A DNA stretch of 64,000 nt from positions 1 through 64,000 of the forward strand of contig JBBISH010000016.1 of assembly GCA_037441385.1 (NCBI GenBank), given 5' to 3'. Shown piece after piece: positions 2,780 through 61,106 of the stretch. This DNA comes from Myxococcales bacterium. Its GTDB lineage: Bacteria > Myxococcota_A > UBA9042. The notes under the pieces are model-generated. The model saw only the letters and a program-made list of their open reading frames with translations. It did not search any database and had not been told where the DNA came from. How positions within the stretch are numbered: the stretch's first letter is position 1; each line of letters starts with the position of its first letter. Position numbers and translations under genes: made by a program.

Positions 2780-4327
<1,548 letters not shown>

Positions 4328-4531
4328 AAAGGAAAACAGGGAGTACTTCGGTACCTTCCCTCAGAACTCCACAAACGCACATCTACTCAACTAGATGGGG
4401 GCCGCAGTCCTCGGAGTGCGGCACCAGTCGATGCTTGCTATCCAGTTTTCAGGGAGCGACCGCTACGCGGTGCTTCTTGGTAACACGGGCCACGCCCGAC
4501 GCGCACAGGCCGCACAGCGGACGGTGTCTTC

Positions 4532-4608
<77 letters not shown>

Positions 4609-4684
4609 GCGTCGGGCCCGCAACCCCGAATCCCGCAGGACGAAGTTCTTGGGGGACGAGTTTCGGAGCAATCCGCGATTCATC

Positions 4685-4757
4685 GGGGCTGTAGCTCAGC
4701 TGGGAGAGCGGCGGCTTTGCAAGCCGTAGGTCAGGGGTTCGAACCCCCTCAGCTCCA
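4685..4757 (+). tRNA. tRNA-Ala (TGC), CCA not encoded
   Basis: GGGGCTG/CAGCTCC acceptor with G3:U70, anticodon loop TTTGCAA, T-loop TTCGAAC. Confidence 0.97.
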
Positions 4758-5054
4758 CTCGCCTGGGTTGGCCCGCGCGAAACGACAGAGTCAGTCTCCG
4801 AATCAGTCTCTAGCGGACCGATTCGATCTTTGAAAACCTGCTCATAACGTAGATAGACACACCGTTCCCAATCTGCCTTCGGTTCACGCCGGGGGTGGAG
4901 CAAGAACAGCGTAATGAACGCACGCATAGGTGTCTGCAGCAGACAGGGGCAACCCTGAAGCACACGAGGTCGGCCCATCCCAAAGGAGCAATCCGCGGGG
5001 TGCCGGTTGCGAGTCTCCGCTGCAGTCACGAGAACGATAGGATGCGAATGCGGT

Positions 5055-8018
<2,964 letters not shown>

Positions 8019-8146
8019 CCGCATTGGCATCAAATCGTTCTTGTGGCTGCAGCAGAGACCCGCAACGGGTCTGCCAGCCAAAGTGCAAAGCGTCCGAGCC
8101 TACGGGCCGCGTTCAACTCTATCTACGTTATCGAACAGGTCACAGT

Positions 8147-8264
8147 TTCCGGTGGCCATAGCGGAGAGGTTCCACCCGATCACATTCCGAACTCGGAAGT
8201 TAAGCTCTCCAGCGCCAATGGTACTTGATGGGAGACCGTCTGGGAGAGTAGGACGCTGCCGGAA
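8147..8264 (+). rRNA. rrf: 5S rRNA
   Basis: TTCCGGTGGC...CCGAACTCGGAAGTTAAG...GAGAGTAGGACGCTGCCGGAA with complementary ends. Confidence 0.97.
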
Positions 8265-30005: not shown

Positions 30006-30941
30006 CTACAGCGGTGGGCAGAACTTGTCGTCGCAGCCGGGGCCCGTCTTGGTGCTCTCGTCTTTGGCACACACGGCGCAGTAGTAGCCACAGGGCAGCA
30101 CATCGTAGTTGCCGGGCGCGCACGGTGGCTGGAATTCCTTGGGCAACGCCATCGTCGAGCACTGCCGCCACTGATCGGCCGGATCCACATTGGGATTGCC
30201 CGGCACCGACAAGAGGCAGCCCCAGCACACGTCCAAGGGGTACTCCATAGTGCCCGAGACCACGTTGTTGCCGCCGGCGGTCTTGCCCTGCAGCTGGAAC
30301 TTCAGCACCACTCGCTCGATGGTGCGGGCGCGGTCGGTGAACTGAGAGAACCGTTGCTGCCACTCGGCGCCCACCGGCTTGCCCGGCGCCGCAAAATCGG
30401 GCACCAGATTCATCCCGATCAAGGCTTTGCTGTTGGCCGGGATGAAGGCCTGCACGGGCAGGTCCCACTGGGCCAGGTTCTGACCGGTGATGGTCTTGTT
30501 GACCTTGACCGTGCTGCTCGGCAGCGAGAACGGCGACGTGGCCTTGGTCGACGGCGAACGCACCATAGTCACGTTCACGTTGGTGATGTTGACCGAGTTA
30601 GGATCCAGACGCAGCGAACTGGGCCCCGAGCCGTTGATCAGCTGCAGCGACGGCAGGTTGTTCTTGACCGACCCGACGAACTTGAACTCGCGCGACAGCG
30701 CCACATCCATCACGCCGTCCAGATAGAAGTTCTGACCGCCGGTGTACGAGCACTGCAAGATGCCGTTGACCACCGTGGCTTGCGGCACCACGTTGCCTTC
30801 GACCGCCAACGCCGTGTTGTTGTAGGAGTCGCAGCCGGCTGCCAACGCGGCCAGTCCCAGGCCCGCGACACCGATGCAGACACGGCGCACCGGCAGCTGG
30901 CGGGTCGCTCCACTAAGCAATCCGTCGAAATTAATCTGCAT
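30006..30941 (-). CDS. Cys-rich lipoprotein, last gene of the pil-aro run
   Basis: GAGGAGG RBS before ATG 30941, lipobox LAAGC, about nine Cys in the C-terminal ~85 aa; overlaps the aroKB 3' end. Confidence 0.8.
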   Translation of the reverse strand: MQINFDGLLSGATRQLPVRRVCIGVAGLGLAALAAGCDSYNNTALAVEGNVVPQATVVNGILQCSYTGGQNFYLDGVMDVALSREFKFVGSVKNNLPSLQLINGSGPSSLRLDPNSVNITNVNVTMVRSPSTKATSPFSLPSSTVKVNKTITGQNLAQWDLPVQAFIPANSKALIGMNLVPDFAAPGKPVGAEWQQRFSQFTDRARTIERVVLKFQLQGKTAGGNNVVSGTMEYPLDVCWGCLLSVPGNPNVDPADQWRQCSTMALPKEFQPPCAPGNYDVLPCGYYCAVCAKDESTKTGPGCDDKFCPPL

Positions 30942-32631
30942 TCTTGCCTCCTCGCTGCTGTGCAAAACCGCCCGGCAGCGGCGACGACGCGGCCGGCAGG
31001 GAAGTTCGCACATGGGTCGGCGCCGTCGCGCCCAGTTCGGCCAAGCGGGTTTGCCAGAGGCCGGCGTCGACCGCCAGCAACTCAGCATGCCCGACGCCGC
31101 GGAGCAGTGGCAACCACAGCTGGTGCCCGCGGCGTTTCTTGTCAGTAGCGGTCCGCGCCAGCGTAGTGGCGGTCGCCCATCGTTCCCATTGGGTTTCCAA
31201 ACCCAACGCTTCCAGTCCCAGCCGCACCGCTTGCGCTGTGCCGACTTCGGCCAGGCCCAAGCTCTCGGCACACTCGGCCTCGCCCACCAATCCCAGCGCC
31301 ACGGCCTCGCCGTGCAGCACCGCGAACTTGCTCTCGGCTTCGATGGCGTGGCCCAGCGTGTGGCCCAGGTTGAGCAGCGCCCGCGCCGATGCGTGGCCGG
31401 GGCCCTGCCGCTCTTCTGGATCCGCGGCCACCACCGCGGCTTTGTGGCGAATCGCCGCCCGCAGGTGCGGGGTCAGCGCGGCCAGCGAGCGCCGCCGCAA
31501 CGCCGGGGCGTCGGCCAGCAACGCCTGCCAAGCCTGGGTATCAAAGGTAAGGAAAATCTTGGCGATTTCTGCCAGACCGGCCCGGAACTGCCGCGCCGGA
31601 AGGGTCTGCAGGGCCTGCAGCGGCAGCCACACCCACTCGGGGCTGTGGAACGCGCCGACTAGGTTCTTGCCTTCTGGTGTGTCGATCGCGGTCTTGGCGC
31701 CCACCGACGCATCGGCCATCGCCAGCACCGTCGTGGGCAGCAAGGCCGTGCGCATGCCGCGCTGCCAGGTCGCCGCACAAAAGCCGGCCACATCCGTCGT
31801 CGCGCCGCCGCCGATCGCCACCAGCAGATCGCTGCGACCCACGCCGGCGGTGGCTAGCGCCGACCAGATCCGGCTGGCGGTGCGCAGGTCCTTGCACTTC
31901 TCGCCCCCGGCCACTTCGATCACCGCGGTGGCGAGTCCGCGCGCTTGCAGCATCTCGACCAGCGGTTGCGCCCACTTGGCCACGCCCCGATCGATCACCA
32001 GCGCCACCTTGCCGCCCGCCGCCAGCGCCACAATGGCTTCCGCAGCTTGGGCCGGTGCGCCGCCGTGCAGCCACACCGGGTGGGTCTGGGCGGCCACGGT
32101 CGCGTCCAGCACGGGCTCGGCCGGCTCCAGCGCACCCAGCACCGCCGTCACCACCGCGCTCAGCGGTTGCGCCGCGTCGACATGCGCGTGGGCCTTGGCA
32201 TAGATCGGCCGGCGCCGCAGCTCTAGCTCCACGAGCGCTGTGCGTGCGCTTTGCCGCGTGTCGCCCAGCAGCGGCCGGTCGGTGTCGTCGTGCAGGGCGC
32301 GCTCGCTCAGCACGTCGACCGGCGCGTCGAGCCACACCACTTGGGCCTTGTCGCGCATGCGCTCGATGCCATTATGGAAACACGGCGCACCGCCGCCAGC
32401 GGCGATCACGGCGGGCGGACCTGCCAGCACTTGCTCCAGTAGCGCCGCCTCGTGGATGCGAAACACCGTCTCGCCCTCGCGACGTAGCATTTCGGCAGCC
32501 GTGCGGCCACTTTCGCGCTGAAGCACGGCGTCCAGATCCAGGCACGGCATGGCCAGCCGCTCGGCCACACGGGCGGCGACGGCGGTCTTGCCAGCTGCGG
32601 GCATGCCTATGATCACGACGCTTTGCCTCAC
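30931..32631 (-). CDS. aroKB: Fused shikimate kinase / 3-dehydroquinate synthase
   Basis: GMPAAGKT P-loop and RPLL (AroK); GGGATTDVAGF, PTTVLAMADASVGAKT and LNLGHTLGHAIE (AroB). Confidence 0.93.
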   Translation of the reverse strand: MRQSVVIIGMPAAGKTAVAARVAERLAMPCLDLDAVLQRESGRTAAEMLRREGETVFRIHEAALLEQVLAGPPAVIAAGGGAPCFHNGIERMRDKAQVVWLDAPVDVLSERALHDDTDRPLLGDTRQSARTALVELELRRRPIYAKAHAHVDAAQPLSAVVTAVLGALEPAEPVLDATVAAQTHPVWLHGGAPAQAAEAIVALAAGGKVALVIDRGVAKWAQPLVEMLQARGLATAVIEVAGGEKCKDLRTASRIWSALATAGVGRSDLLVAIGGGATTDVAGFCAATWQRGMRTALLPTTVLAMADASVGAKTAIDTPEGKNLVGAFHSPEWVWLPLQALQTLPARQFRAGLAEIAKIFLTFDTQAWQALLADAPALRRRSLAALTPHLRAAIRHKAAVVAADPEERQGPGHASARALLNLGHTLGHAIEAESKFAVLHGEAVALGLVGEAECAESLGLAEVGTAQAVRLGLEALGLETQWERWATATTLARTATDKKRRGHQLWLPLLRGVGHAELLAVDAGLWQTRLAELGATAPTHVRTSLPAASSPLPGGFAQQRGGKNAD

Positions 32632-32652: not shown

Positions 32653-35600
32653 CTACTTGCCCACCGTCAAAGACGACGAGCGGTTGACGATGCGGGGGGT
32701 GATGAAGATGAGCAGTTCCGTGCGCTTGTCTTCTTCGCGGCGGGTGCGGAACATCGCGCCGATCAGCGGAATGTCGCCAAAGAACGGCACCTTCTTGGTC
32801 GAGAGCGAGGTGTTGCGGGTATAAATGCCGCCGATCACCGTCGTCTCGCCGTCGCCCAGCAAAAGCTCCGTATTGGCTTCGCGTTGCGTGATGGTCGGGT
32901 TGCCGTCTGCCGCGCGGTTGCTGAAGTCCGGCTCGTTCTTGGTCACGTTCACGGCCAGCTTGACGTTGCCGTCCTGGGTGATATGCGGCGTGGCCGAGAG
33001 CTTCAGGTCGGCGCTGAAGAAGCGCGTCTGCACGCCCTGGGCCGACACGACCGAGATCGGGATCGAGATGCCTTGCTTGATGGTGGCCTGGTAGTTGTCC
33101 AGCGTCAGCACCTTGGGACTCGAGACGATCTTGACCACACCTTCTTGCTCGGCCGCGCTCAAGCGCAGGTTCAAGTTGCCCGCGCCGCCCAGCGAACCCA
33201 AGGTCAGACCGATCGCACCACCGGCGCCGGTACCCACGGCGGCCGGCAGGTTCACGGCGTAGTTCGGAATCGCCGTCGCAACGCCGTCTTTGTTGGGCGC
33301 CTGGCTGTCCGCGCCGCCGCCCACGCCCACCACGCTGGGGAAGGGCAGGCCGGTCTCGTTGCCGTAGACCGAGCTCATGGCGTAGTTGCCGCCCCACTGG
33401 ATACCGACTTCCTTGCTGAACGCCGAGCTGGCCTCGACCACTCGCGCTTCGATCAGCACTTGCGGCGTCTGCCCGTCCAGCTTGCGCACCAGCTCTTCTA
33501 CGGCTGCCACGTGGTCTTCGGTGTCGGTGACCACCAGCGAGTTGGTGCGGGCGTCCATCGTCACCGAGCCCTTCTTGCTCTTGATGGCGTTGGCCTGCGG
33601 CACGAGCTGTTCGGCCTGGGCGTAGTTGACCGGAATGATGCGGACGACCAGCTGCTTGACCTCTTCCAGCTTCTGCCGGCGCTCGACTTCGGCGTCGAAC
33701 TCCTTCTTCAGCGAGTCGATGGTCGCGACGCGGATCACGCCGGCCTGGCGCACGTAGTCGTAGCCGCGGGCGCGCAGGATCACGTCCAGCGCCAGGTCCC
33801 ACGGGATGTTCTCCAGGTGGAACGTGACTTTGCCTTGGACTTCCGGCCCGGCGATGATGTTCAGCTTGCCTTCCTTGGCCAGGAACGTCAGCACGTGCTG
33901 GATGTCTGCGTCCTTGATGGTCAAGTTGATGCGCTTGCCGGTGTAGCGGCGGTTCTTGCGCCACGGCGTCTTGATGTCGCCGCCCCCTTCGCCGCCACCG
34001 CTGGGGCCGCCGGCATCTTCGGGCGCCATCACAGGTTGCGGGGCCGCGGCCAACACATCGCCGCCCGACTTCACGGCGCGCGACACGCCCTTGGGGCCGT
34101 CGGCCACTTCTTGGCGCTCGGCGCCTTCCACGCGGTCAAAGTCCCACATCAGCTGGCCGTCACGCAGCGTCACGCGGTCGGCGGCGCGATCGCTCAGATC
34201 GACCACGACGCGCACTTCGTCCTGCACACCCTCGGGCCGGAACACGGTGACGCGCTCGAGCGGACCTTGCAGCGCCTTGGTGTCGTAGGCGCGCTGCAGG
34301 TGCTCGGGCAGGCGCACGCCGCGCACGGCCAAGACGACGCGGTTGGGCTGGCGGCTGACCACTTCGGCGCGCGCCATCTCGGCGCCGCCACCCAGGGCTA
34401 GCTCGACGTGGCCGCGGCGCCGACCTTCGGCCGTGATGCGCACGTCGTCGATGCGGCCCATGTCGTCGCTCTTGGCGGCGCGCTCGTTGCGGGCCTTCTG
34501 CCGCTCTTGCTCGGCTTCGCGGCGCAGCACCTGGGCCTGGGCGGCGGCCTGCTCGGCGGCAGCCTCGGCATTGCGGCGCTGCTCGGCACCCTGGGCCTCG
34601 CGGCGGGCGCGCTGCAACTCGTCGGCCAGGCGCTGCTTCTCGGCGCGCTCGGCCGCCAAACGCTGCTCCTGCTCGGCGATGCGGCGCTCGGCGTCGGCGG
34701 TCTGGCGCGACTCGGCCTCGCGCTCTTGCCGCTCGCGCTCGGCGCGCGCTTCCAGAACGGCGATGCGGGCCTGCTGGCGCTGCACGTAGTCGCCACCGCC
34801 CTTGCTGCCCGCCGCCGCTTCGGCCTGCTTGCGCCGGTTCTGCTCGGCGGCCAACTGCGACTGCAGGTCCTGCTCGCGCTGGACGTACTTCTCTTCCAGG
34901 GCTTTTTCGCGGGCCTCGTGCTCGGCCTGCAGCTGGGCGCGCACGGTGGCCAGCTCTTTCTCTACGCGCTCTTGGGTGCGCTTTTGCTGCTCGGCAGCGG
35001 CCTTTTCGGCCATGGCCACCTTGGCGCGCACGTCGTCGACCGCGCGTTCGGCCGCCACGATGCGAGCGCGCGACGAGGCGCGATCGCTGCGCATGGCTTC
35101 GAGCTCGCCTTCGCGGGCACGCAGGTTGCGCGACAGATCACCCATCTTCTCTTCGGCTTGCCGGCGAGCGGCCTGCTCGCGTTCGGCTTCGCGCCGCGCC
35201 GCCGCCACCGCCTGGTCGCGGTCGTGCAGCGCCTTCTTGGCCATCTCGGTGTCCTTGCTCAGGCGCTGCGTCTCGCGCTGCGCGGCCTGCGCCTCCTGGT
35301 GCCGACCGGCCGCCGCCGCCGCCTGCTCGCGCCGCTTGGACTCGCCCAGGGCGCGGTTCAGGGCGTCGATGCGCTCTTGGGTCTTGGCCTGCAGGTTGCG
35401 CAGCTCGGCCTCGCGCTGGTCCAGCAGACCCTGTACGGCCTCGGCCTGCTTGCTGGCGGCCGCAGCCTGCTGGCTTGCGGCCACGGCCTTGCGCGACTCT
35501 TGGGCCCGCGCCGCTTCCTTTTCGCGAAGTTGCGCCTCGTACGAGTTGCTGAGCGCCTGCTCGCGACGGGCCAGTTCGGCCTTCAACTCCATGCGCACCT

Positions 35601-38600
35601 GGGCCACACGATCTTCGGCATCGCGCTCCATCTTGCGGACTTCGGCGTCGCGGGCGGCCATCGACGCGTCGATCTGCTTGCGCAGCGCGGCCACCTGAGC
35701 CTCGGCCTGAGCGACCGACTTGCCTTGATCCTGGCCACCCACGCGCAACCGCTGCAGCTCCGCCTCGCGCTCGGCCAGGGCCGTCTGCAGGCGCTGTGCC
35801 TCTTGCTCTGCCGCCGCGCGGGCTTCGGCTTGCCGCTTGGACTCGCCGACTGCATTTTGCAGCGCCGTCTCGCGGGCCTTCAGATCCGTTTGCAGGGATC
35901 CCAGCGCCGTCTCTAGGCTCTTGCGCTCTTCCTTCGCCTTGTCCGCCTCGGCCGCGCGGCCCTTGGCCTGGGCGTCCTTTTCGCGCTGGCTGGCTTCGTC
36001 CAGCTGGGCTTCCAGAGCCGCCTGGCGGACTTGCATCTCGTCGTGCAGCCGTTGCAGCTCTTGCTCGCGGTCCTTCAGCAAGCCTTCGACGCGGGAGGCG
36101 CGCTCTTGCGCCTGGCGCGCCTGCTCGCCGCGCTCGCTCTGGACGCGGGCCAACTCGCGGGCGTGGGCCTGCTCCAGCTCTTGCCGCATCGCGCCCAGCC
36201 GGCTGTCGAACTGCTCGGCCATGGCCCTTTCGCGGCGGGCCTGATCGGCAAGCTGACTCTGCAGGCGCTGGCGGGCCTCGGCCACGGCGCGCTGGGCGCT
36301 GGCCATTTCGTCCGCTTTGGCGGACTTGCGGGACTTCAGGCTGCCCAGCTCGCGCTCGCGGTCGGCCAGGGCCTTTTGCAGGCGATCCGCCTCTTGCTCG
36401 GCTTTGTCACGGGCTTCGGCCTGCAGCTTCGCCTCGCGGCGCGCGGCGGCCACCGCGTCGGTCTGGCTCTGCAGATCCTTGCGCAACTGGGCCTGTGCGG
36501 CTTCCAGCCGCTGGCGCTCTTGGCGGGCGCTCTCTTGATCGGCGCGTCGACCCTCGCGCAGCGCCTTGTCTTCGGCCGCCTTGACCTCGCGCATCTGGGC
36601 CGCAAGTTTGTCCTCGCGCTCGCGGACCGACGCCTTCAGGGCGGCCACTTCTCGCTCACGCGCGGCCAACTGCTGTTCCACGCCCTGGGCGCGCTGAGCC
36701 GCAGCCGAGCGCTCGCGTTCCAGATCCGCCACCGCCGCCTTGGCGCGCTGCAGCTCGGCCTGCGACGAGGCCAGCTCGGCGCGGACACCCTGCAACTGCC
36801 CCTGCAGCTTGGCCTGCAGCTCGGCCACCTGGCGATCCTGGTCGGCTTGCTGGGCCGCAAGTTGCTGGCGCGCCTTCTGCACCTCGGCTTGGGCCGCGGC
36901 GATCTGATGGTTCGAAGCAGCTTTGCCCTTGGCCAACTCGGCCAGCGCTGCTTCGCGCTCGGCCAGACTGTTGCGCAGCTTTTGGGCCTCGGCCTCGGCC
37001 TGCTGACGCGCCTTGCCGTTGCGCTCCGCCTCGCCGCGGGCCGTCGCCAACTCGCGATCGCGACTGGCCAGCTCTTTGGCCAGCTCGGCCTGCTTGGCCT
37101 CGATGTCGCCGCGCGCCTTTTGCGCCGCCGCCAGCTCACTCTGCTTGCCGGCCCGCTTGGCTTCATCTTCGCGGGCCTTGGCCTGACTCAGCTCGGCCTT
37201 CAGGTTTGCCTCGCGGTCCTTCAGGGCGGTGCGCAGGTTCTGCAACTCGCGCTCGCGCTGATCCAGCAGGTCTTGCACTTGCGCTGCCCGCTGGGCTGCC
37301 GCGGCGTTCTCGCGCTGCAATTCGGCCTTCTCGGCGCGCAGGTCGGCCAGCTGGGCTTGCGCCGCCGCCAAGTCCTTTTGCACGCCCTGCAGCTGACCCT
37401 GGAGCTTTTGCTGCAGCGCGGCCAATTGCGCATCGCGCTCGGCCTCTTGATCGCGCAGCTTGGCGCGCGCGGCTGCCACTTCCGCTTCGGCCTTGGCGAT
37501 CTGCTGACGGCTCGCAGCGGTGCCCTGACCGAGCGATTGCAGGGCGGCCTCGCGCTCGGCCAGCGCCGACCGGAGCTTCTGATTCTCGACCTCGGCTTGC
37601 TGCCGGGCCTGGGTGGTCTTTTCGACTTCGCGGCGCGCGGCCTTCAACTCCTCGTCGCGGCGGCTCAATTCGCGGGCCGCTTCGGCCTGACGACGCTCGA
37701 CGTCGGCACGGGCCTGGCGGGCGGCCTCGACTTCGGCTTGCTTGCCGGCTCGCTCGGCCGCCTGCTCGCGCTGGCGGGCTTGCGCCAGTTCGGCCTGCAG
37801 ACCCGACTCCTTGTTCTGCAGCGTTGTCCGCAGGTTCTGCAGCTCGCGCTCGCGCTGGGCCAGCAGGTCTTGGACTTGCTCGGCGCGGGCGGCGGCGGCG
37901 GCCTTCTGCCGCTCCAGATCGGCGTTTTGCTTCTTCAGGCCTGCGACTTCGGCTTGGGCCGAGGCCAGATCGCGCTGCACTTCGTCCAGCTGACCCTGCA
38001 ATTTTTGCTGCATGGCCTGCAGTTGCCGGTCGCGCTCGGCGGCCTGCGCCACCAACTGCGCTCGGGCCGCGGCAACCTGGGCCTGCGCCTGCTGGATCTG
38101 CTGGGCGCTCGCGTCCTTGCCCTTGGCCAGGGACTGCAGCGCAGCCTCGCGGTCGGCCAGCACGTTGCGCAGGCGCTCGGCTTCCTGCTCGGCTTGCTTG
38201 CGGGCCTGGGTATTGCGCTCCACGTCTTGACGGGCAGCCGCCAGATCCGCGTCGCGCTTGACCAATTCCTTGCTCAGTTCGGCTTGGCGGGCGCGAATGG
38301 TCTCTTGGGCTTGCTGCGCAGCCGCGACTTCCGCCGCCTTGCCGCCTTGCTTGGCCTGCGCTTCGCGGGCCTTGGCCTCGGCCAATTCCGCGGCCAGCGA
38401 CGACTCGCGATCCTTCAGGGCCAGGCGCAGGTTTTGCAGCTCGCGCTCGCGCTGCCCCAGCAGATCCTGGACGCGACCGGCGCGCTCGGCCGCGGCAGCC
38501 TTCTCGCGCTCAAGGTCGGCCACCTTGGCCTGGCTGGCCGCCAGCTTGCGCTCACTCTCGGCCGCCCGCTCTTCGGCCAGGCGCCACTTGCGCTCGGCCT

Positions 38601-39777
38601 GCTCGCGCTCGTAGTCGGCGCGCTTGGCCTTTTCCAGGGCGTTCTCGGTGTCCATCAAGCGGCTGCGCGCCGCGGCGAGTTCGCCGGCCAGTTGCTCCTG
38701 CTTGCGCTTGGCCTCGGCGTCCGAACCCGCGCGCGCGGCCTGCAGATCGCGGTCTTTTTCGGCCAAGATCTTCTTGAGGTGCTCGACTTCTTCGGCTTGG
38801 GCTTGCCGGCGCGACTCGCTGGCCCGGCGCATCTCGTCGCGGAGCTGCTCGGCCTGTTGCTTGGCCCTTTCCAGCTCGGCTTGCAGCACCGCCAAACGCT
38901 CGTCGCGGGCCGCGCCTTCTTGCTTTTGCAGCGCGGCGATCTGCTGGCGCAGCAGTTCCACGCGCGCTTCCTCGGATTGCCGTTGCGCGACCACAGCTTG
39001 CAGCGAGGCGCGCTCTTTGTTCAGCTCGGCGCGCAAGGCGTCAGCGGCCTTCTGCTCGCTCGCCAGCCGGGCGGCGGCAGCTTGGGCGGCCTGCTCGGCG
39101 TCGGCTAGGCGCTTCTTGAGCGCCTCTTGGGCCTGCAGGTCGGTCTTGGCGCGCGCCAGTTCGTCGGCCAGGCGGTTGCGCTCGTCTTGCGCTTGCTTAC
39201 TGGCCAGCGCGGCTTGCTCTTCGCGGGCGCGGGTGGCGCGCAGTTCGTCGGCCAGCTGCTTTTCGCGCGCGGCGGCGGTCTTGACGGCCTGCTCGTTGGC
39301 CGCCACCTGGGCGCTCTGGGCCTGGTTCAGCTTGCGGTCGCTGCCGTCGACCACGACCACGACGGTATTGCCGTCGGCGCGGACGTGGTACAGGGCATCT
39401 TGTTCAAAGGTCACGACAATTCGACCCACCGGCGCGCCCGACTTCTTGGTCGACTGCACCTCGATGGACCGCACCACGCCGTTGCCCACGTACTTGGGTG
39501 CTTCCAGCCCTTGCACGTCGCTGCCCGCCACGTCGATGAACAGGCGCGAGGGCTTGTCCAGGCGGAAAGTCGTAAACGTAGGCGCCGCCAGACCGCGCAC
39601 CGTGATGACGGTGGTCTGGGTCGCTTCTTGCACGTCGACGGCGGTCAGGGTGTTGCTCGCCTGGCCAGTGCCCTCGGCCGCGAACAAAGGCGTCGCCGGC
39701 AGGGCCATGGTCGTCGACAAGAACAAGCCCATCGACGAGCGCAGCAGCCGCTTGGCCATCGTTTGCTTGGTTCTCAT
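32653..39777 (-). CDS. pilQ: Type IV pilus secretin PilQ, giant form (2374 aa): signal peptide, AMIN, ~1620-aa helical insert, AMIN, N0/N1, secretin
   Basis: GAGGAG RBS. AMIN-like FRLDKPSRLFIDV near the N-terminus and a second AMIN-like segment from ~aa 1775. YTGKRINLTIKDADI...IPWDLALDVIL, PQVLIEARVVE and TELLIFITPRIV. Follows pilMNOP. Confidence 0.95.
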   Translation of the reverse strand: MRTKQTMAKRLLRSSMGLFLSTTMALPATPLFAAEGTGQASNTLTAVDVQEATQTTVITVRGLAAPTFTTFRLDKPSRLFIDVAGSDVQGLEAPKYVGNGVVRSIEVQSTKKSGAPVGRIVVTFEQDALYHVRADGNTVVVVVDGSDRKLNQAQSAQVAANEQAVKTAAAREKQLADELRATRAREEQAALASKQAQDERNRLADELARAKTDLQAQEALKKRLADAEQAAQAAAARLASEQKAADALRAELNKERASLQAVVAQRQSEEARVELLRQQIAALQKQEGAARDERLAVLQAELERAKQQAEQLRDEMRRASESRRQAQAEEVEHLKKILAEKDRDLQAARAGSDAEAKRKQEQLAGELAAARSRLMDTENALEKAKRADYEREQAERKWRLAEERAAESERKLAASQAKVADLEREKAAAAERAGRVQDLLGQRERELQNLRLALKDRESSLAAELAEAKAREAQAKQGGKAAEVAAAQQAQETIRARQAELSKELVKRDADLAAARQDVERNTQARKQAEQEAERLRNVLADREAALQSLAKGKDASAQQIQQAQAQVAAARAQLVAQAAERDRQLQAMQQKLQGQLDEVQRDLASAQAEVAGLKKQNADLERQKAAAAARAEQVQDLLAQRERELQNLRTTLQNKESGLQAELAQARQREQAAERAGKQAEVEAARQARADVERRQAEAARELSRRDEELKAARREVEKTTQARQQAEVENQKLRSALAEREAALQSLGQGTAASRQQIAKAEAEVAAARAKLRDQEAERDAQLAALQQKLQGQLQGVQKDLAAAQAQLADLRAEKAELQRENAAAAQRAAQVQDLLDQRERELQNLRTALKDREANLKAELSQAKAREDEAKRAGKQSELAAAQKARGDIEAKQAELAKELASRDRELATARGEAERNGKARQQAEAEAQKLRNSLAEREAALAELAKGKAASNHQIAAAQAEVQKARQQLAAQQADQDRQVAELQAKLQGQLQGVRAELASSQAELQRAKAAVADLERERSAAAQRAQGVEQQLAAREREVAALKASVREREDKLAAQMREVKAAEDKALREGRRADQESARQERQRLEAAQAQLRKDLQSQTDAVAAARREAKLQAEARDKAEQEADRLQKALADRERELGSLKSRKSAKADEMASAQRAVAEARQRLQSQLADQARRERAMAEQFDSRLGAMRQELEQAHARELARVQSERGEQARQAQERASRVEGLLKDREQELQRLHDEMQVRQAALEAQLDEASQREKDAQAKGRAAEADKAKEERKSLETALGSLQTDLKARETALQNAVGESKRQAEARAAAEQEAQRLQTALAEREAELQRLRVGGQDQGKSVAQAEAQVAALRKQIDASMAARDAEVRKMERDAEDRVAQVRMELKAELARREQALSNSYEAQLREKEAARAQESRKAVAASQQAAAASKQAEAVQGLLDQREAELRNLQAKTQERIDALNRALGESKRREQAAAAAGRHQEAQAAQRETQRLSKDTEMAKKALHDRDQAVAAARREAEREQAARRQAEEKMGDLSRNLRAREGELEAMRSDRASSRARIVAAERAVDDVRAKVAMAEKAAAEQQKRTQERVEKELATVRAQLQAEHEAREKALEEKYVQREQDLQSQLAAEQNRRKQAEAAAGSKGGGDYVQRQQARIAVLEARAERERQEREAESRQTADAERRIAEQEQRLAAERAEKQRLADELQRARREAQGAEQRRNAEAAAEQAAAQAQVLRREAEQERQKARNERAAKSDDMGRIDDVRITAEGRRRGHVELALGGGAEMARAEVVSRQPNRVVLAVRGVRLPEHLQRAYDTKALQGPLERVTVFRPEGVQDEVRVVVDLSDRAADRVTLRDGQLMWDFDRVEGAERQEVADGPKGVSRAVKSGGDVLAAAPQPVMAPEDAGGPSGGGEGGGDIKTPWRKNRRYTGKRINLTIKDADIQHVLTFLAKEGKLNIIAGPEVQGKVTFHLENIPWDLALDVILRARGYDYVRQAGVIRVATIDSLKKEFDAEVERRQKLEEVKQLVVRIIPVNYAQAEQLVPQANAIKSKKGSVTMDARTNSLVVTDTEDHVAAVEELVRKLDGQTPQVLIEARVVEASSAFSKEVGIQWGGNYAMSSVYGNETGLPFPSVVGVGGGADSQAPNKDGVATAIPNYAVNLPAAVGTGAGGAIGLTLGSLGGAGNLNLRLSAAEQEGVVKIVSSPKVLTLDNYQATIKQGISIPISVVSAQGVQTRFFSADLKLSATPHITQDGNVKLAVNVTKNEPDFSNRAADGNPTITQREANTELLLGDGETTVIGGIYTRNTSLSTKKVPFFGDIPLIGAMFRTRREEDKRTELLIFITPRIVNRSSSLTVGK
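34840..38472 (-). repeat. Six diverged ~597-bp (199-aa) coding repeats inside pilQ
   Basis: Anchor V[QE]xxLxxRExE[LV] starts at 38472, 37875, 37278, 36681, 36090 and 35436 (spacings 597, 597, 597, 591, 654 bp). Confidence 0.9.
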
Positions 39778-39837: not shown

Positions 39838-40509
39838 TCAGGGTACGTCGCCAACATCTTCGTCGCCGGGTTCGCCCACCGAGATGGGCGGAGCCAGCGA
39901 CAACGTCACCGGTTTCTCTTTGCCGGGCACAGACAGAATCACCTTGTACTGGGTGATCGCCGTCACGCGCGCCCCGTCGTTGCCCAATGCGTCGCCGCGC
40001 ACCACGTCGCAGCGCCCGCCATCGGGATCCGTAAACACGGCCTTGGGTTGCGCCACGCCGGTCATGATCATGAACAGGACATAGCGCTCGATTGGGCCTT
40101 TGGTCGCACAGGTGTCAGGCAGGTCCGCGGGCCGCTCGTCCATGCCCACGGGCTGGTCCACCACGGCTTGCTCGGGCACCTTGGGCCACTCGACGACCTT
40201 GGTCGTGTTGTCCAGCGACCAATTCACCACGCCGTCGATGGGCTCTTTGGTATACCGGTCGAACAAACCCTTGATGGGCCGCCACTTGGGATTCTCGCCC
40301 AACACTTGATACGCGCCCGAGGCGGCGCTGCTGCTCGAGTTGCTGGACTCCGTGCCGGCCAAGCGGTTCAGGGCCTGGTTCATGTCCTTGGGTGGCGGCT
40401 TCTTGGCCTCGCCGCCGCCGCCACATGCCACCAGCGCCAGCGATGCCAACGCCAGCAGCGCGCGCGCCGCTGGCTTGCCCAGCATGTTCAGGACAGCTGA
40501 CTGCAGCAT
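39838..40509 (-). CDS. pilP: PilP-like lipoprotein
   Basis: Lies between pilO and pilQ with a TGATG overlap. Lipobox LVAC, beta domain IMTGVAQPKAVFTDPDGG...GDALGNDGARVTAI. Confidence 0.85.
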   Translation of the reverse strand: MLQSAVLNMLGKPAARALLALASLALVACGGGGEAKKPPPKDMNQALNRLAGTESSNSSSSAASGAYQVLGENPKWRPIKGLFDRYTKEPIDGVVNWSLDNTTKVVEWPKVPEQAVVDQPVGMDERPADLPDTCATKGPIERYVLFMIMTGVAQPKAVFTDPDGGRCDVVRGDALGNDGARVTAITQYKVILSVPGKEKPVTLSLAPPISVGEPGDEDVGDVP

Positions 40510-41255
40510 CAGGTCCTCTTCTTCTTCGGCTTTTCGCGCCGAGCCATGCCTTCTTTGAGCTCGGCCGGCTTGCCGGTCCACACAAAGGCGTAGGCGGTAA
40601 AGGTCGCCCGGATGGTCGTGCGGTCGCGCGCCATGTCGGCCATCTCGAACTTCTCGTACAAAATGGCCTCGGGGCTCTTGTTCGTTTCTTGCTTTTTGTC
40701 GCCTTCCACGGGCTTGTGCGCCGAGTCGTAGGCCGCGCGCACCAGACCGGATTCTGGCACCACTGTTTCGACGCTGATGCCCCGGATGTTGATCAGGCGT
40801 CGGCTCATGCCCGCGTACAACCGCAAAAATTCGATGAACTGCTGGACGGTGCCTTCCAACGTCACCTTGATCGGGATGGCGTTGTAGAGGTCTTCGCTCT
40901 CTTCCTGCAGGCGGTCGAAGCGCTTGATGGTCAAGTGGATGTCGGTGGCGTCGGCCTGGACCCCGTCGATGAACTTGGGGATCTCGTCGGCCGAGGGGAA
41001 GCCGGCGCGGCGCCGTTTGTCCTCTTCGACCAGATCGTCCTTCTCTTTGCGCAGCTTGTCCGCCGCCTCGCTACTGGCCGAGGACTTCAGCGCATTGACG
41101 TCGCGCTCCAGCTTGGTCAACTGCGCGCGCGCTTGATCGGCTTTGCCCAACTCGGGATCGACCAGGCCAAAGTACAGGCCCAGCGCGACGACCACCAGGA
41201 TGCCTGCCAACACCGCGGCCTTTTGGGCGGGCGGCAACTTCATGAACTGTTCCAT
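40509..41255 (-). CDS. pilO: Type IV pilus alignment protein PilO
   Basis: N-terminal TM, coiled coil, FPSADEIPKF, YNAIPIKVTLEGT, RRLINI; operon position. Confidence 0.88.
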   Translation of the reverse strand: MEQFMKLPPAQKAAVLAGILVVVALGLYFGLVDPELGKADQARAQLTKLERDVNALKSSASSEAADKLRKEKDDLVEEDKRRRAGFPSADEIPKFIDGVQADATDIHLTIKRFDRLQEESEDLYNAIPIKVTLEGTVQQFIEFLRLYAGMSRRLINIRGISVETVVPESGLVRAAYDSAHKPVEGDKKQETNKSPEAILYEKFEMADMARDRTTIRATFTAYAFVWTGKPAELKEGMARREKPKKKRT

Positions 41256-41273: not shown

Positions 41274-42344
41274 TTATTCCGCTGCCGGCATCTTGTCGGC
41301 CGGTGCAGCTGCGGGTGGTGGTTCGGCGGCTTGATGGGCAGCCGGCATGGCCGCTTTGCCGTCGTCGCGCGGCAACTCGTCGGCCTTGGCTTTGCCGGCC
41401 TCGGCCTTGGCGGGCTCGGCTTTGGGCGCTTCGGCCTTGGCGTCCGGCGCAGTCGCCGTGTCGGGCTCGCTGTCTTTGGCCTCGGCCGGCGTGTCCGGCG
41501 CCGACCCGGCATCGATGTCGTCGGCTGCCGTCGCCGCTGCGGGCAGGGGCAGTGCCACCTTGGTGCCGATGACGGCCGCGTCGTCGCCGGTGCTGCCTGC
41601 GTCGGCGGCGCCGCCATCCGTAGAGCCAGCGTCCGCGCCATTGCCCGCAGCAGCGCCTTCTTCGGGTTTGGCCGGATTCAGCGGTTCGATCAGATAGACC
41701 AGCGAAGCCCGGATCGAGAATTCGACATAGGTGATGCCGATCTGGTCGTCGCGCTTCTTTTCTTGGTAAATCAGCTTGGGTTCGCGGAAGTACGGGCTCG
41801 ACTCCAAGCGCCACTGCAGCTCGGCCACGTCTTCGTGCCCCAGCGCGCGGCCCTGGATGGTCACCTCGCCGCCCGACTCGCGGTACGTCGTGACCCACGC
41901 GCGGCGCGCGTCCCAGCCCACGTGCCAACCCGCGGCCTCAAAGGCCACCAGATCGGCCGTGGGCGTCTCGTGTTGCTGGCGCGGCTGCAGGATGAACGAC
42001 AGGTATTGCAGGGCGCCCGCCGGCCCGTCCTTTTCGGCAAACAGCTCGTCGAGCACGGCCTTCTGATCGCGGAGTTTCTTGATCTCTTCGGTGGCCAGCG
42101 CGATCGCCTTCTTGTTCTCTTCCAGCTTGACGAGCTCCAGCTTGCGCCGCTCGAGCTGGGACTTGGCGCGCGTCGCCTCTTCCGCGGCGGTGTTTTGCCA
42201 CAGATAGAAAACGGCCAGTTCCATGACCAAGAACAGCACGAACAGCAAGATGCCGACGTTGGGGATATCGGGCAGGCGCAAGCCCGCGCCGCCCTTGCGA
42301 CTTTTCTTACCGGCGCCGCCACCGATCAGGTTGATGCGAATCAT
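41274..42344 (-). CDS. pilN: Type IV pilus alignment protein PilN with a long acidic low-complexity tail
   Basis: MIRINL PilM-binding motif, TM, coiled coil, VTIQGRA..LESSPYF. True start is ATG 42344. Confidence 0.9.
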   Translation of the reverse strand: MIRINLIGGGAGKKSRKGGAGLRLPDIPNVGILLFVLFLVMELAVFYLWQNTAAEEATRAKSQLERRKLELVKLEENKKAIALATEEIKKLRDQKAVLDELFAEKDGPAGALQYLSFILQPRQQHETPTADLVAFEAAGWHVGWDARRAWVTTYRESGGEVTIQGRALGHEDVAELQWRLESSPYFREPKLIYQEKKRDDQIGITYVEFSIRASLVYLIEPLNPAKPEEGAAAGNGADAGSTDGGAADAGSTGDDAAVIGTKVALPLPAAATAADDIDAGSAPDTPAEAKDSEPDTATAPDAKAEAPKAEPAKAEAGKAKADELPRDDGKAAMPAAHQAAEPPPAAAPADKMPAAE

Positions 42345-42352
42345 GCCAGCAC

Positions 42353-43408
42353 CTACCGATCTCCCAGCCGGCGCATCGCCAGACCCACCGCCACGCCCGC
42401 CACCGGCGCCATGCGCTGCAGCATTTGGGCGTCGAACTTCTTGGGGTCGACGACGACGTTGTTGAAAGGATTGAGCGCCCGCACCGTGGTGCCCAGGCGA
42501 CGTTCGATGCCTTCGATGAGGCCCGCTTGCACAGCCGCGCCGCCGCACAAGTAGATGGCGGCGATGTCCGAGTTCATGGCCGTGGCGGCAAAGAAATCGA
42601 GCGAGCGCTGGATTTCGTTGATGAGCACCTCGGACACGCGTCCCGAAATGCGCTGCACCTCGCGCAGCACGCCCGACATGGACAGCGTCGTCTCCGACGT
42701 GGTCTTCATGTGCTCGGCTTCGTCCCAGGGCACGGCGAATTGTTTGGCGATTTCGTCTGTGAGCAGGTTGCCGCCTACGGTGATGTCGCGGGTGAACGAG
42801 GTCGTGCCGTCGCTGACGACGTTGATGTTGATGGTCGAGGCGCCCACGTTGACCAGCGCCACCGTCTCGTGCGTCGGCACCGCAAAGTTCAACTCGAACG
42901 CATTGTAGAGGGCAAAACAGTCGACGTCGACTACCACCGGTTCCAGCTTGCAGGCCCGCACCACGTCGAGCATTTCCTCGATCACCGCCTTCTTGGCGGC
43001 CACCAGCAGCACGTCCATCTGGCCCTGGCCGGCGTGCGGGTTGATGATCTGGTAGTCGACGTTCACATCTTTGATATCAAAGGGGATGTACTGCTCAGCC
43101 TCCCACTGGATCTGTTCGTCCAGCTCGGCCGGCGTCATCTCGGGCAGCGAGATCTTCTTGATGATGACCGAGTGGCCCGACAGCGACACGGCCACGCGCC
43201 GCTCGCGCACCTTGTTGGCCGCGATCAACTCGCCCACGCGCTGCGCCAGCAGCGGAGCGTTGAGGATCACCCCATCCTTGATGGCATCGGGCGGGAGCAT
43301 CATCGTGTCAAAGGCCAGCAGCTGCGCGCCCTTGGATGTCTCCTTGAGGTGGGCGAGCTTGATCGACGACGAGCCGATGTCCAAGCCGACGGCATTTCTG
43401 GTCGCCAT
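42353..43408 (-). CDS. pilM: Type IV pilus assembly protein PilM
   Basis: GLDIGSSSIK, WEAEQYIPF, DVLLVAAK, EIQRSLDFF, LCGGAA. Confidence 0.97.
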   Translation of the reverse strand: MATRNAVGLDIGSSSIKLAHLKETSKGAQLLAFDTMMLPPDAIKDGVILNAPLLAQRVGELIAANKVRERRVAVSLSGHSVIIKKISLPEMTPAELDEQIQWEAEQYIPFDIKDVNVDYQIINPHAGQGQMDVLLVAAKKAVIEEMLDVVRACKLEPVVVDVDCFALYNAFELNFAVPTHETVALVNVGASTININVVSDGTTSFTRDITVGGNLLTDEIAKQFAVPWDEAEHMKTTSETTLSMSGVLREVQRISGRVSEVLINEIQRSLDFFAATAMNSDIAAIYLCGGAAVQAGLIEGIERRLGTTVRALNPFNNVVVDPKKFDAQMLQRMAPVAGVAVGLAMRRLGDR

Positions 43409-43532
43409 GCTCGCGCTGCTCCTGCACGGGCCGAAGTGGCCCAAACCCACCGACACGCTTCCGGTATGCCTTTTTGGTATGCCGTTGCGGTGGGAGGTGC
43501 GCCGGGCCTAGCCCAACACACTCCAAGGGGCA

Positions 43533-51470: not shown

Positions 51471-54400
51471 TCAGCGCACCTGCAGGTGGCCGATGGTGAC
51501 GCGGTTGTCGCCGTGCTTGATGACCCCCGGCCCGGTGGCCGAGAGCAGGGGCAGGCGGGTGTCGCTGGACGGGTTGTACCAGCCCAGGATGATCTCGCTG
51601 GGGCCGGCGTTGGTGCCAAGCGGCACCTCTTGCTCGAAGTAGTCGGCGATCACGTCGCCCGGCATCCAGTGGTTGGTCTGGAAGCAGCCGTTGCACGGCT
51701 TGTTCTCGTCTTCGCTGGGGTCCGGCTGGGTCAGGGGCCAGCGGTCCAGGTGCAGCGGGTGCGGGTGCATGAACAGCTTCCACGACACGCTGGTGGGTTT
51801 GATCACCTTCCAGTAGAGGGTCATCTTGTACTTTTGCGACCGCGACACCGCCGAGTCGGCCAGCTTGTAGCCGATCAGATGGATGGTGTTGTCAAAGTTG
51901 GCAAAAATCTTGCGCAGACCCTTCTGCTGCGCCACGTCCGCCTCGGTGATCAGCGCTTTTTTCAGCCAGTTCTGGTCTGGCTGGCTGGGCAGCAAGACGT
52001 TGGCAGCCAGCACCAGCCGCGACGAGCTGTCGTCCAGCAGGGGGATGTGCCGGCCGGCGTGCGCCTGGCGGAAGGTGTGGTTCAGGTCCGAGAAGCTGTC
52101 GCGGGGCAAAATCACAAACCGCTGCACGGCCTTTTCTGCGGCGTGTTGCCAGTCGTTTTCGCCCTTGGCCTTGTCCAGCACGATCCAGCCCTTGTTGCCG
52201 TCGTCGCCGGCCAAGCTGAGCGGTTGCGACAAGGTCAAGTCATCCTTGCCGTTTTCGACCACCGTGGCCGTCTGCCCGGCCGGCGCGTACACCGCGGCGC
52301 CCTGCCACTGGTTGGGCTGCCAGGTTGCCTTGGCCAACTTGACGCGGGTGCCCTCGGCCTTGGCGACCAGGCCAAAATACGCAGGTTGATCGCGCTGGCC
52401 GTTGTTGTCCGTGTCCAAGGCTGGCTCCCAACCCGGCAGTGCCACCAGCCGGGTCGCGCCGCCGTTGGCGTTGTCCACCACCCGCGCGGCCACGTTGTCG
52501 CCGCCCAGCATCGACAGGACCGTCTGACGATCTTCGATGATCGGCAGCGACTGCATGTAGAAGTTGTTGTCGCCGCCGCTCTGGCCGCCGTGGGCAAAAG
52601 TGCGCGGTTCGCCGTGCTCGTCGGGTCCGCTGCCACCGGCGTCGGCGATGCGCTGCAGCAGGTGCTTTTGCGAGAAGTGCAAAGACAGGTCGGGCAAGAG
52701 GTTGAACGCATAGCCGCTGGCAAAGGACACACCCCCAACCACCAGGGCCGCCATCGCCCAGCGCGGTTGCTCCAAATGGCCAAGCAGGGCCACGCCGCGG
52801 TCCAAGCCATCCCGCAACTTGGCGCGATCCAAGGCCCAGCGATTCACCGCCACTGCCGCCGCGGCCACCAGCCACAGCGCGCTGTCGGGGCTGGCCACCA
52901 GCACCTTGGCCAGGTACAGGTAGGCCTCGGAACTTGGCTGAGTCTCTTGGATATAGCGCGCGGCAAGCGGTCCGAACAGCACCTGCATGGTGACGACGCC
53001 CGCCGCCACGCTGGGCCAGGCCAACAGCGCCGGATCTCCCGCCGCAGTGCCCACCGCGACGAGCACGCCCAGCAGGGCCAACCACCAACAGCCGACCAGG
53101 TACAACGGCCAGCTCCAAGTGCCCGAAGCCTGCGACGCGCCCACGCCGATGCCGGCCACCGCTAGCAGTCCCAGCAGTCCAAGGGCCACCCCAGCGTGGT
53201 TGCGCATCCACCGCGCCAGCGGCGACCACAGCGAGTCCCGGTCGTCGTGCGGCAGCACCAGCCGCGCCACCGCCGCCGCCACCACCAACGCCACGGGCGC
53301 CAAGAACGCCGAAGAGCTCAGGCCCGCCGCAAGCGCGCCGCCGGTGCCCAGATTCGGTTGTAGCTGCAACAGCTTGCTGATCCCGCTGAACAGGACCATC
53401 GCCGCGCCCACGGCGCCCAGGGTCAGAGCCGGGACGGGGCGCGCCACCAGGCCGGCCAGGCGGGCCAGCGGCCGAACAAAGCGCCGCCATCCCGTTGGGT
53501 CGCCACCGGTCAGCAGCGTGGTCAACAGCAGCAGGCCCACGGCCGCAGCGCCCGCCATCACCTCTGGGCGCGTATCCTGGATGGTCACCCACAGCCGATC
53601 GTAGTTGTAGTTGGTTGTCTGCGCTTGGGTTTTGAGCAAGACATCCAACTTGGTGCCCAGCGACACCAGCGCGTCCAGCGCCCACGCCAGACCCAACAGG
53701 CCCAGCGTCCAGCCGGCCGCCCGCGGCGTCCGCAGCCGTTCAACCGCCGTGCGCACCGCGGCAAAGGGCTGACCCAGGCCGACCGCAAACGCCATCACTG
53801 CCAGAAGCGTGAGCATATGCAGGGGCTTGGGCAGCGTCAGCGCCTCGGGCCACACCAAGTTGCCGGTGCCGCCGGGCGGCTGCAGCGGCGGGTCAAACGC
53901 CAAGAACCGCGTGACCGAGTCGGCGCCGTGGCTGATCTCGCGGTGCAAAAGCAGCGTGGCCAGCGCGACAAACACGGCCGCTGTGCGGCCTTTGATTCGC
54001 CCTTCGAGCAAATCGACCAGCATGGCCGTGGCCGCCAGGACCATGGCTCCCGCGGCTGGCAGCACGAAGTGGTTGAAATTGTGAATGAGCACCGCCACAA
54101 CCGCGTACGGCACCGCCAGGCCCAGCAGCAGCGCCGCCCCCGCCTGCCACCGTTGCGGCGACGATTGCCGATCGCTGGCGAGCAAGCTCCCCAGGCCTAC
54201 GGCCACGGCTGGCCCCCAGGGAAAGCTGGCGAAGCCCACTTGACCAACGAACCAAGCAAAATCACGATGGTACTGATCGGGACCGCTGGAGAATGGCGCT
54301 TGGGTAAAGCGCAGCCCGCGCAGCAGCCACGAGTCTTGGTTGCCCAATACGACCATCGCCGCCACGGCCAGGAGCGCGCCGCTGCCCACCGCCACGGCCC

Positions 54401-55583: not shown

Positions 55584-55630
55584 CAAGCGCCTCGTGCTGG
55601 CGGTGCCTCTGGCCAGCAGCCGAGCCGCGA

Positions 55631-55659
55631 AGTCTAGGCGTGCACGCGCAAATTGGCAA
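55631..55659 (-). promoter_or_regulatory. sigma70-type promoter for the GT-mtnA-M16 run
   Basis: Minus strand TTGCCA-17 bp-TAGACT. Confidence 0.6.
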
Positions 55660-55714
55660 ACGGTCGGCCGATCTTGCTGCTTGCTTGGGCGCCTTGGCCC
55701 GCGGGTACGCCCAC

Positions 55715-55742
55715 TTGACAGGTCGGCTGGGGCCGCCATACT
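55715..55742 (+). promoter_or_regulatory. sigma70-type promoter pointing toward dnaG-rpoD
   Basis: TTGACA-16 bp-CATACT, divergent from the promoter above. Confidence 0.6.

Positions 55743-58391: not shown

Positions 58392-61102
<2,711 letters not shown>

Positions 61103-61106
<4 letters not shown>

Follow-up and report, generated by a model that had tools for sequence, protein, structure and literature searches.

A giant PilQ secretin from Myxococcota with a long, predicted helical rod between its two AMIN domains

The pilQ locus and the layout of its product

We analyzed a 64,000-nucleotide (nt) stretch of DNA from a Myxococcales bacterium (assembly GCA_037441385.1, contig JBBISH010000016.1, positions 1 to 64,000; hereafter the window), which is free of N and carries a pilQ gene encoding a protein of 2374 amino acids (aa) with a 1627-aa insert between its two AMIN domains. 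What we say of this protein is based on its sequence and on predictions. The open reading frame (ORF) has an ATG start, with a GAGGAG Shine-Dalgarno motif 7 nt 5' of it, and zero internal stops. Its guanine-plus-cytosine (GC) content at third codon positions is 0.82-0.91 in each block of 150 codons, and the coding signal is unbroken through the insert. The start, the ribosome-binding motif and the uniform third-position GC agree with the single uninterrupted 2374-aa frame that an initial annotation, made without database searches, had described. The features of the gene are given below, with those of its product in aa and the evidence in brackets.

32653..39777, minus strand: pilQ, encoding putative signal peptide, AMIN, predicted helical rod, AMIN, N0, N3 and secretin (ORF, Pfam, NCBIfam, third-position GC)
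39334..39654, minus strand: AMIN domain 1, distal, aa 42-148 (Pfam AMIN and a family hidden Markov model [HMM])
34453..39333, minus strand: predicted helical insert, aa 149-1775 (no proline; 84% A/E/Q/R/K/L/D; hydrophobic period 3.55)
34888..39105, minus strand: seven tandem units of ~199 aa, R0-R6 (BLAST, alignment, AlphaFold2)
34126..34452, minus strand: AMIN domain 2, pore-proximal, aa 1776-1884 (Pfam and family HMM)
33946..34125, minus strand: Pro/Gly-rich linker between AMIN2 and N0, aa ~1885-1944 (translation; prolines at 1895-1938)
32656..33945, minus strand: secretin module, aa 1945-2374, with N0/STN at 1954-2017, Secretin_N at 2045-2106 and Secretin at 2208-2364 (Pfam, NCBIfam)

Profile matches identify the protein as a type IVa pilus secretin PilQ of about three times the normal size. 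The NCBIfam model TIGR02515 ("type IV pilus secretin PilQ") matched aa 1947-2365 over profile positions 1-428 of 428, with 414.7 bits against a cut-off of 284.35. In Pfam, the same module matched Secretin (PF00263; aa 2208-2364; E 9e-48), Secretin_N (PF03958; aa 2045-2106; E 2.4e-15) and STN (PF07660; aa 1972-2017; E 1.2e-6), the last with 28.7 bits against a cut-off of 28.4, while the GspD N0 model reached 25.4 bits, slightly below its cut-off of 27. AMIN (PF11741) was matched in two stretches (E 1.3e-12), the best of them at aa 1790-1863, and HMMs built from the family alignment placed the two domains at aa 42-148 and 1776-1884. Read by eye from the translation, the N-terminus shows a basic n-region, a hydrophobic core and an A-x-A-like site. 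The order of probable signal peptide, AMIN, insert, AMIN and secretin given in the initial annotation holds, its boundaries lying within a few residues of the profile coordinates, and the AMIN, Secretin_N and Secretin domains that it named were all recovered in Pfam.

The pilQ gene is the last of a pilM-N-O-P-Q operon and is followed by aroKB:

30931..32631, minus strand: fused aroK-aroB (shikimate kinase and 3-dehydroquinate synthase), 21 nt 3' of pilQ
39838..40581, minus strand: probable pilP (position, lipoprotein-like N-terminus, BLAST to the same slot elsewhere)
40509..41255, minus strand: pilO, 248 aa (Pfam PilO, E 2.7e-13)
41274..42344, minus strand: pilN (Pfam PilN, E 3e-11)
42353..43456, minus strand: pilM, 367 aa (Pfam PilM_2, E 3.6e-71; TIGR01175, 246 bits against a cut-off of 133)

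The operon is intact, as had been stated, with PilM, PilN and PilO recognized by profile and PilP by its position, its N-terminus and BLAST. The likely start of pilN is at MIRINL... (~356 aa) and that of the probable pilP at the methionine of MLQS... (~223 aa). No Pfam or NCBIfam family matched the pilP slot, and its BLAST matches lay in the same slot of only three of the loci from other genomes described below (L016, L030 and L034).

The PilN protein carries a C-terminal tail of ~140 aa, of low complexity and rich in Ala, Pro, Asp, Gly, Glu and Lys. It measures ~356 aa here, 321 in L030 and 239 in L034, against 178-226 in other loci, and PilO has 248 aa here and 245 and 253 in L030 and L034, against 192-214 elsewhere. 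These extensions are confined to the clades with the longest PilQ inserts.

Repeats and predicted structure of the insert

The composition of the insert is that of a long helical segment. No proline occurs from residue 116 to residue 1811, in line with the initial annotation, and residues 150-1772 consist of A (24%), E (13.5%), Q (13%), R (13%), L (9.5%) and K (6%). Over the 1627 aa, hydrophobic residues recur with a period of 3.55. In the best heptad register, positions a and d are occupied by LIVMFWY in 43% of cases (62% including Ala) versus 4% elsewhere, the value for shuffled sequences being 30%, and this register changes each 45-120 residues.

BLAST of aa 420-618 against the whole protein, followed by alignment, defined seven units of ~199 aa: R0 (225-425), R1 (420-618), R2 (619-816), R3 (818-1013), R4 (1017-1206), R5 (~1214-1403) and R6 (~1432-1630). 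R1, R2 and R3 are mutually 62-63% identical in aa, and R0 and R4-R6 are 30-41% identical to R1. Tandem Repeats Finder reported just two trivial 21-nt arrays in pilQ, since a repeat of ~600 nt is beyond its range and too diverged.

The unit is a property of the near relatives of this protein. A profile of it found 3-7 copies in 19 of the 201 family proteins scanned, all from the window's near clade (P0001-P0017, L002 and L030), and single partial matches in two others. Against 1.84 billion representative sequences, the same profile matched 19 proteins at E <= 0.001, the top three being giant PilQs (P0016, P0014 and P0004) and a further one (P0122) an AMIN-bearing N-terminal piece. Those of the weaker matches that have Pfam families are generic coiled coils, and P0123, P0125, P0134 and P0137 have no Pfam family. 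This search revealed no donor protein for the insert, and a comparison of the repeat region with shorter proteins gave zero matches at E <= 0.001. Among ESM Atlas look-alikes of two units there were only generic coiled-coil clusters, with scores <=0.90 and low recognition. Matches of the insert to Pedibin, SMC and ASRP lay far under their cut-offs and reflect composition.

One protein matched by the unit profile stands apart: P0124, a coiled-coil protein of 622 aa (E 1e-15), has a C-terminal OmpA-like segment scoring 26.3 bits against a Pfam cut-off of 27.2. It is perhaps a further helical protein of the periplasm that is anchored to the wall and akin to the insert.

We modeled one and two units with AlphaFold2. 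The model of one unit (aa 420-618, 7 paralogous rows) had a predicted local distance difference test score (pLDDT) of 91.1 and a predicted template modeling score (pTM) of 0.74, with three helices at unit positions 2-59, 62-133 and 139-198 (58, 72 and 60 aa). That of two units (aa 420-816, 6 rows; pLDDT 86.0, pTM 0.52) had helices at 2-59, 62-133, 139-258, 261-332 and 338-396. Helix 139-258 crosses the unit boundary, so that the third helix of unit 1 is continuous with the first of unit 2. Each ~199-aa unit is thus predicted to form an elongated antiparallel three-helix bundle, a topology read from the helix lengths, the pTM and the shapes retrieved by Foldseek. A glycine occupies unit position 60, at the first predicted turn, in 99% of 79 units from 18 proteins, and in the same units the second predicted break (133-140) is polar and tolerates insertions.

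The shapes that Foldseek ranked best were those of 4tql, a designed long three-helix bundle (probability 1.00, template modeling score [TM] 0.46), and of BAR, F-BAR and I-BAR monomers, which likewise place ~200 aa in three long antiparallel helices. TM was 0.4-0.5 for one unit, and the two-unit model reached at most 0.59 on the target side. In contrast to this likeness of shape, all E-values were >0.02 and no sequence similarity was found, and BAR domains are single bundles that dimerize on membranes.

The strong heptad-type hydrophobic seam also suits a different arrangement, in which the helices pair with those of neighboring protomers or pores, either in a few thick arms of up to ~240 nm or in a polar lattice that clusters and cross-links many pilus machines. 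A 12-15-mer would set many identical helices side by side, and AlphaFold2 runs on a monomer, here with alignments of 6-7 rows, are known to replace partner chains by fold-back. Set against this, the glycine found in 99% of the 79 units sits exactly at the predicted hairpin turn and the three helices are near-equal in length, whereas a continuous parallel coil requires neither; a single unit modeled as a monomer also reached a pTM of 0.74. We regard pairing between chains as rather unlikely.

If the units are bundles, the rod is predicted to advance ~60-72 helix residues per unit, or ~9-11 nm, and to measure ~70-90 nm with its seven units and flanks, compared with 244 nm for a single straight helix. 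The span of ~240 nm in the initial annotation assumed one straight helix and would be about three times too long for the predicted chain of bundles; the 0.15 nm per residue behind it is the rise of a straight alpha-helix and not that of a fully extended chain. The accompanying argument, that the insert is too long for a periplasm and must fold back or run sideways, fares better. AlphaFold2 does predict folded-back bundles, three helices in the single unit, and the AMIN domains at both ends fit a lateral run.

Distribution and origin of the insert

Giant PilQs are numerous. A search with the C-terminal 600 residues as the query, among proteins of 1305-4155 aa and at E <= 0.001 (7999 scored candidates), returned 382 PilQ relatives of at least 1305 aa. 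All 120 long matches listed contain a proline-free stretch of 359-1790 aa with 66-89% A/E/Q/R/K/L/D. AMIN, a helical gap of 560-1912 aa, AMIN and secretin follow one another in 110 of these 120, and the other 10 are without an N-terminus. The longest of the matches listed (P0009) has 2646 aa, which leaves the 2374-aa protein of the window one of the largest PilQs though not the record holder. With the same query, 56 of the 120 matches listed among proteins of <1305 aa have both AMIN domains, separated by a helical gap of 198-562 aa in 49 cases and by <=72 aa in 7. All seven shorter matches of at least 69% identity are N-terminally truncated pieces (301-549 aa), and no complete insert-less form close to the window's PilQ was present among the shorter matches listed. 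The impression that this protein was unique did not survive these searches, which gave the 382 long relatives together with shorter forms holding inserts of 198-562 aa. The sequences are public, and some of the relatives are already named PilQ in databases.

PilQ loci numbered at least 598 in a scan of species-representative genomes, and we kept the best 80. A helical insert is present in 11 of these 80 (L002, L004, L015, L016, L018, L030, L034, L036, L037, L038 and L080), the pilQ of L036 being interrupted by N. Of these 11 loci, 8 have both pilM and pilN upstream, and L002, L018 and L036 have neither. None of the 11 comes from a record titled as a cultured strain. Complete PilQ ORFs of insert-less loci have 528-1139 aa, for example 817 in Sorangium, 1010 in Anaeromyxobacter and ~900 in Myxococcus. 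Another contig of the same species (L001), 3.9 kb long, matches aa 1886-2374 with 99% identity, and its end cuts the gene.

Two further observations concern individual loci. The shortest insert among the 80 best loci is that of L080, a Kofleriaceae metagenome-assembled genome (MAG) whose 963-aa PilQ has a helical gap of 243 aa. Three loci that group with Myxococcota (L048, L074 and L005) come from records titled as Spirochaetia, Fredinandcohnia (Bacillota) and Pseudomonadota MAGs, titles that are probably binning or labeling errors.

These results show that the giant-insert PilQ is neither a singleton nor an assembly artefact. The gene does hold tandem repeats, the same-species contig ends inside it, and close relatives differ in their counts of 25/50-aa repeats, all of which could suggest a misassembly of repeats or a tolerated expansion without function. 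The units, however, are 38-65% identical in DNA and their longest shared exact run is <=20 nt, which cannot mislead an assembler. The coding signal is uniform, and the window holds a complete rRNA operon and no N. Several complete ORFs of >2000 aa occur on separate contigs of 11-284 kb, and the insert has stayed open, proline-free and heptad-patterned across a deep clade. The concern over misassembly raised by the initial annotation is answered by the low identity of the repeats and by the recurrence of the architecture in independent assemblies, and we consider an artefact or functionless repeat extremely improbable. Annotators should accordingly treat MAG entries of 1300-2650 aa named "PilQ" as genuine genes, not as fusions.

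The giant protein shares with canonical PilQ the TIGR02515 family, the order AMIN-N0-N3-secretin, the pilMNOPQ operon and homologous AMIN1 and AMIN2. M. xanthus PilQ has three AMIN domains, and PilQ of the Polyangiaceae type two adjacent ones. The difference lies in the linker (1627 aa here versus 9-45 aa in Polyangiaceae- and Sandaracinaceae-type loci) and in the total length (2374 aa versus 528-1139 aa for the complete ORFs of insert-less loci). Because the short relatives hold homologues of the same two AMIN domains 9-45 aa apart, sequence comparison indicates that the insert is an expansion of the inter-AMIN linker.

We built a maximum-likelihood tree (quick search) from the last 430 residues of 114 rows, comprising the window, 74 loci and every third long match; the tree excludes six right-truncated loci and scores L036 as insert-bearing from its tblastn span. 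The Myxococcus/Archangium/Anaeromyxobacter group lies on one side. On the other are a 36-row insert-bearing clade that contains the window and successive insert-bearing branches that surround a 42-row insert-less clade (Polyangiaceae, Sandaracinaceae and Labilithrix). The minimum number of state changes for the insert on this tree is 2, versus a mean of 38 after shuffling, and this fits one old gain and one loss of the insert, on a tree whose root was not inferred, whose long rows were pre-selected for length and in which L080 has a long branch and an odd composition.

Inserts of distant members contain 72-86% A/E/Q/R/K/L/D and mostly have a hydrophobic period near 3.5, and their repeat periods are 170 aa, 25/50 aa, 28/42 aa or none. 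Three proteins with identical last 430 aa (P0050, P0053 and P0056) have inter-AMIN gaps of 1227, 1277 and 1327 aa, which may reflect either a rapid change of repeat number between strains or assembly variation. A 25-aa internal repeat was seen in the inserts of P0051 and P0056, those examined of the P0050-P0056 group. By these comparisons, the position, helicity and length of the insert are kept, and its sequence and exact length are not. Through this drift in sequence and length the rod has stayed free of stops and prolines and has kept its heptad pattern, a sign of selection for an extended physical arm on the pore.

The spread of lengths bears on whether the rods might stand perpendicular to the membranes, as a spacer across a wide periplasm or a conduit that sheathes the pilus. 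Precedents for such a connector are SlpA and Ompalpha, in which a long coiled coil links a wall-binding domain to an outer-membrane anchor (available text of PMC9388160), and PilN and PilO are somewhat longer in the window's clade. The wall-binding AMIN domains, however, lie at both ends of the rod, and even 70-90 nm exceeds the usual periplasm. Inserts range from ~200 to 1912 aa among relatives, with steps of 50 aa between proteins of identical C-termini, and the extra length of PilN is its low-complexity tail, its periplasmic coiled coil being of ordinary length when the translation is judged by eye. A spacer or conduit is therefore very unlikely. The same length variation makes the insert a poor fit for a precise ruler, and the ordinary coiled coil of PilN leaves the unusually wide envelope, another suggestion of the initial annotation, unsupported.

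Possible roles of the rod, related architectures and genomic surroundings

Secretins rank among the best-studied machines of the outer membrane. How they are fixed to the wall and how the envelope bears the large forces of pilus retraction are still open questions, and here a branch of Myxococcota carries a rod of 0.2-1.9 thousand aa precisely between the wall-binding domains of PilQ. The reading toward which we lean, while holding it somewhat short of probable, is a PilQ pore with lateral arms made of spectrin-like chains of bundles, a remote AMIN1 anchor and a mechanical or positional role. The C-terminal 430 residues would build the usual outer-membrane pore, and AMIN2 would tie this pore to the peptidoglycan right beneath it. 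The inter-AMIN linker (~20 aa in Polyangiaceae) would have been enlarged by tandem duplication to a 1627-aa rod, a head-to-tail chain of ~8 three-helix bundles joined by continuous helices, and AMIN1 at the tip of the rod would be a second, remote peptidoglycan anchor. Such a rod would lie along the sacculus, because it has wall-binding AMIN domains at both ends and because its compact length exceeds the periplasm.

Secretins form pores of 12-15 subunits. If the giant PilQ assembles likewise in the outer membrane, as we assume by homology, each pore would bear a corona of 12-15 arms. These might share out the pull of pilus retraction across a broad area of wall, yield elastically and stake out territory around each machine.

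Several points weigh against this proposal. The lateral geometry, the load sharing and the elasticity are what we infer by analogy. The bundle fold comes from AlphaFold2 runs whose alignments were shallow (6-7 paralogous repeats), and predictions of monomers can fold back helices that are really paired between chains. Foldseek searches with the one- and two-unit models gave 0 matches at E <= 0.001. Unit position 156, where the largest total of inserted residues falls, is within the predicted third helix. Finally, the three-helix unit may be limited to the window's own clade, since the inserts of distant members have other repeat periods or none.

AMIN1 is well conserved across the family and the rod sequence is not, which would also suit a targeting line. 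Here AMIN1, held on a long and flexible tether, would reach septal or polar peptidoglycan over a larger radius and capture or pool monomers before assembly, with no mechanical role. According to the available text of PMC10653833, the peptidoglycan-binding AMIN domains of M. xanthus PilQ are required for its recruitment to nascent and new poles. On the other side, relatives with 20-aa linkers share both AMIN domains and presumably target normally, and a structured rod of 400-1900 aa is a costly tether. We judge this explanation unlikely.

A bolder form of the mechanical proposal is quite unlikely in our view, namely that the arms make up a spectrin-like elastic skeleton of the periplasm, pinned to the wall at both ends, unfolding and refolding under retraction and perhaps interlocking between pores. 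If true, the bacterial periplasm would gain its first described extensible protein network, and the secretins their first member with a built-in mechanical suspension, the length of which is tuned fast by gain and loss of repeats.

The proposed lateral arms have parallels in two groups of proteins. Like the giant PilQ, the SlpA/OmpM/Ompalpha connectors combine an N-terminal wall-binding domain, a long helical coiled coil and a C-terminal outer-membrane beta-barrel (available text of PMC9388160). In contrast to them, PilQ has AMIN in place of SLH and a secretin in place of a trimeric porin barrel, adds a second wall-binding domain at the barrel end, and has a rod much longer than the periplasm is wide, for which a chain of bundles is predicted instead of the trimeric stalk of those connectors. 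Pfam gave no SLH or porin match on the giant PilQ, and no sequence relationship to these connectors was found.

Spectrin and EzrA are chains of antiparallel three-helix bundles arranged head to tail, and a helix that runs on from one unit into the next is the hallmark of spectrin-type rods (available text of PMC4243239). Both features are predicted here, the continuous helix in the two-unit model. The units differ in size, ~199 aa here versus ~99-122 aa in the available text of the same source, and the rod of PilQ is periplasmic whereas theirs are cytoplasmic. Neither family had a Pfam match on the giant PilQ, nor did either appear among the Foldseek matches listed. The giant PilQ resembles both the SlpA/OmpM connectors and the spectrin/EzrA rods and is a member of neither group. 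Should the chain of bundles prove correct, the spectrin-like design would reach into the bacterial periplasm as well.

An AMIN domain followed by a charged, TolA-like alpha-helical region is known from delta-proteobacteria, the same broad lineage, and is listed apart from the PilQ architecture (PMC2572700, de Souza et al. 2008, available text); no secretin with an internal helical insert is described in that text. The same holds for a helical inter-AMIN insert in the available text of PMC10653833, which surveys PilQ architectures, and of PMC13190605. No account of a secretin whose AMIN domains are separated by a helical insert came up in a search of the full-text literature, with most subscription journals and supplements outside its scope. 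The giant-insert PilQ is apparently undescribed in print, in agreement with the initial annotation, which knew of no secretin of this design.

The surroundings of the operon are those of a housekeeping chromosome, with a complete rRNA operon, mutL, miaA, dnaG and rpoD. The rRNA operon (2780-8264, plus strand) comprises 16S (2780-4327), two tRNAs (4532-4757), 23S (5054-8020) and 5S (8148-8264). Long antisense frames lie over the pilQ insert, up to 1025 aa (e.g., 36031-39108, plus strand). They fail the third-position-GC test as genes, and such frames are expected in Ala/Glu/Arg-rich coding DNA of 70% GC. A 1422-aa ORF at 51471-55739 (minus strand) has as its sole family match a weak PMT_2 glycosyltransferase-type segment (aa 319-462, E 1.7e-7). 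The RpoD-type sigma factor (58392-61106, plus strand; 904 aa) is unusual for the long spacer, ~540 residues, that separates region 1.2 (98-130) from region 2 (670-740).

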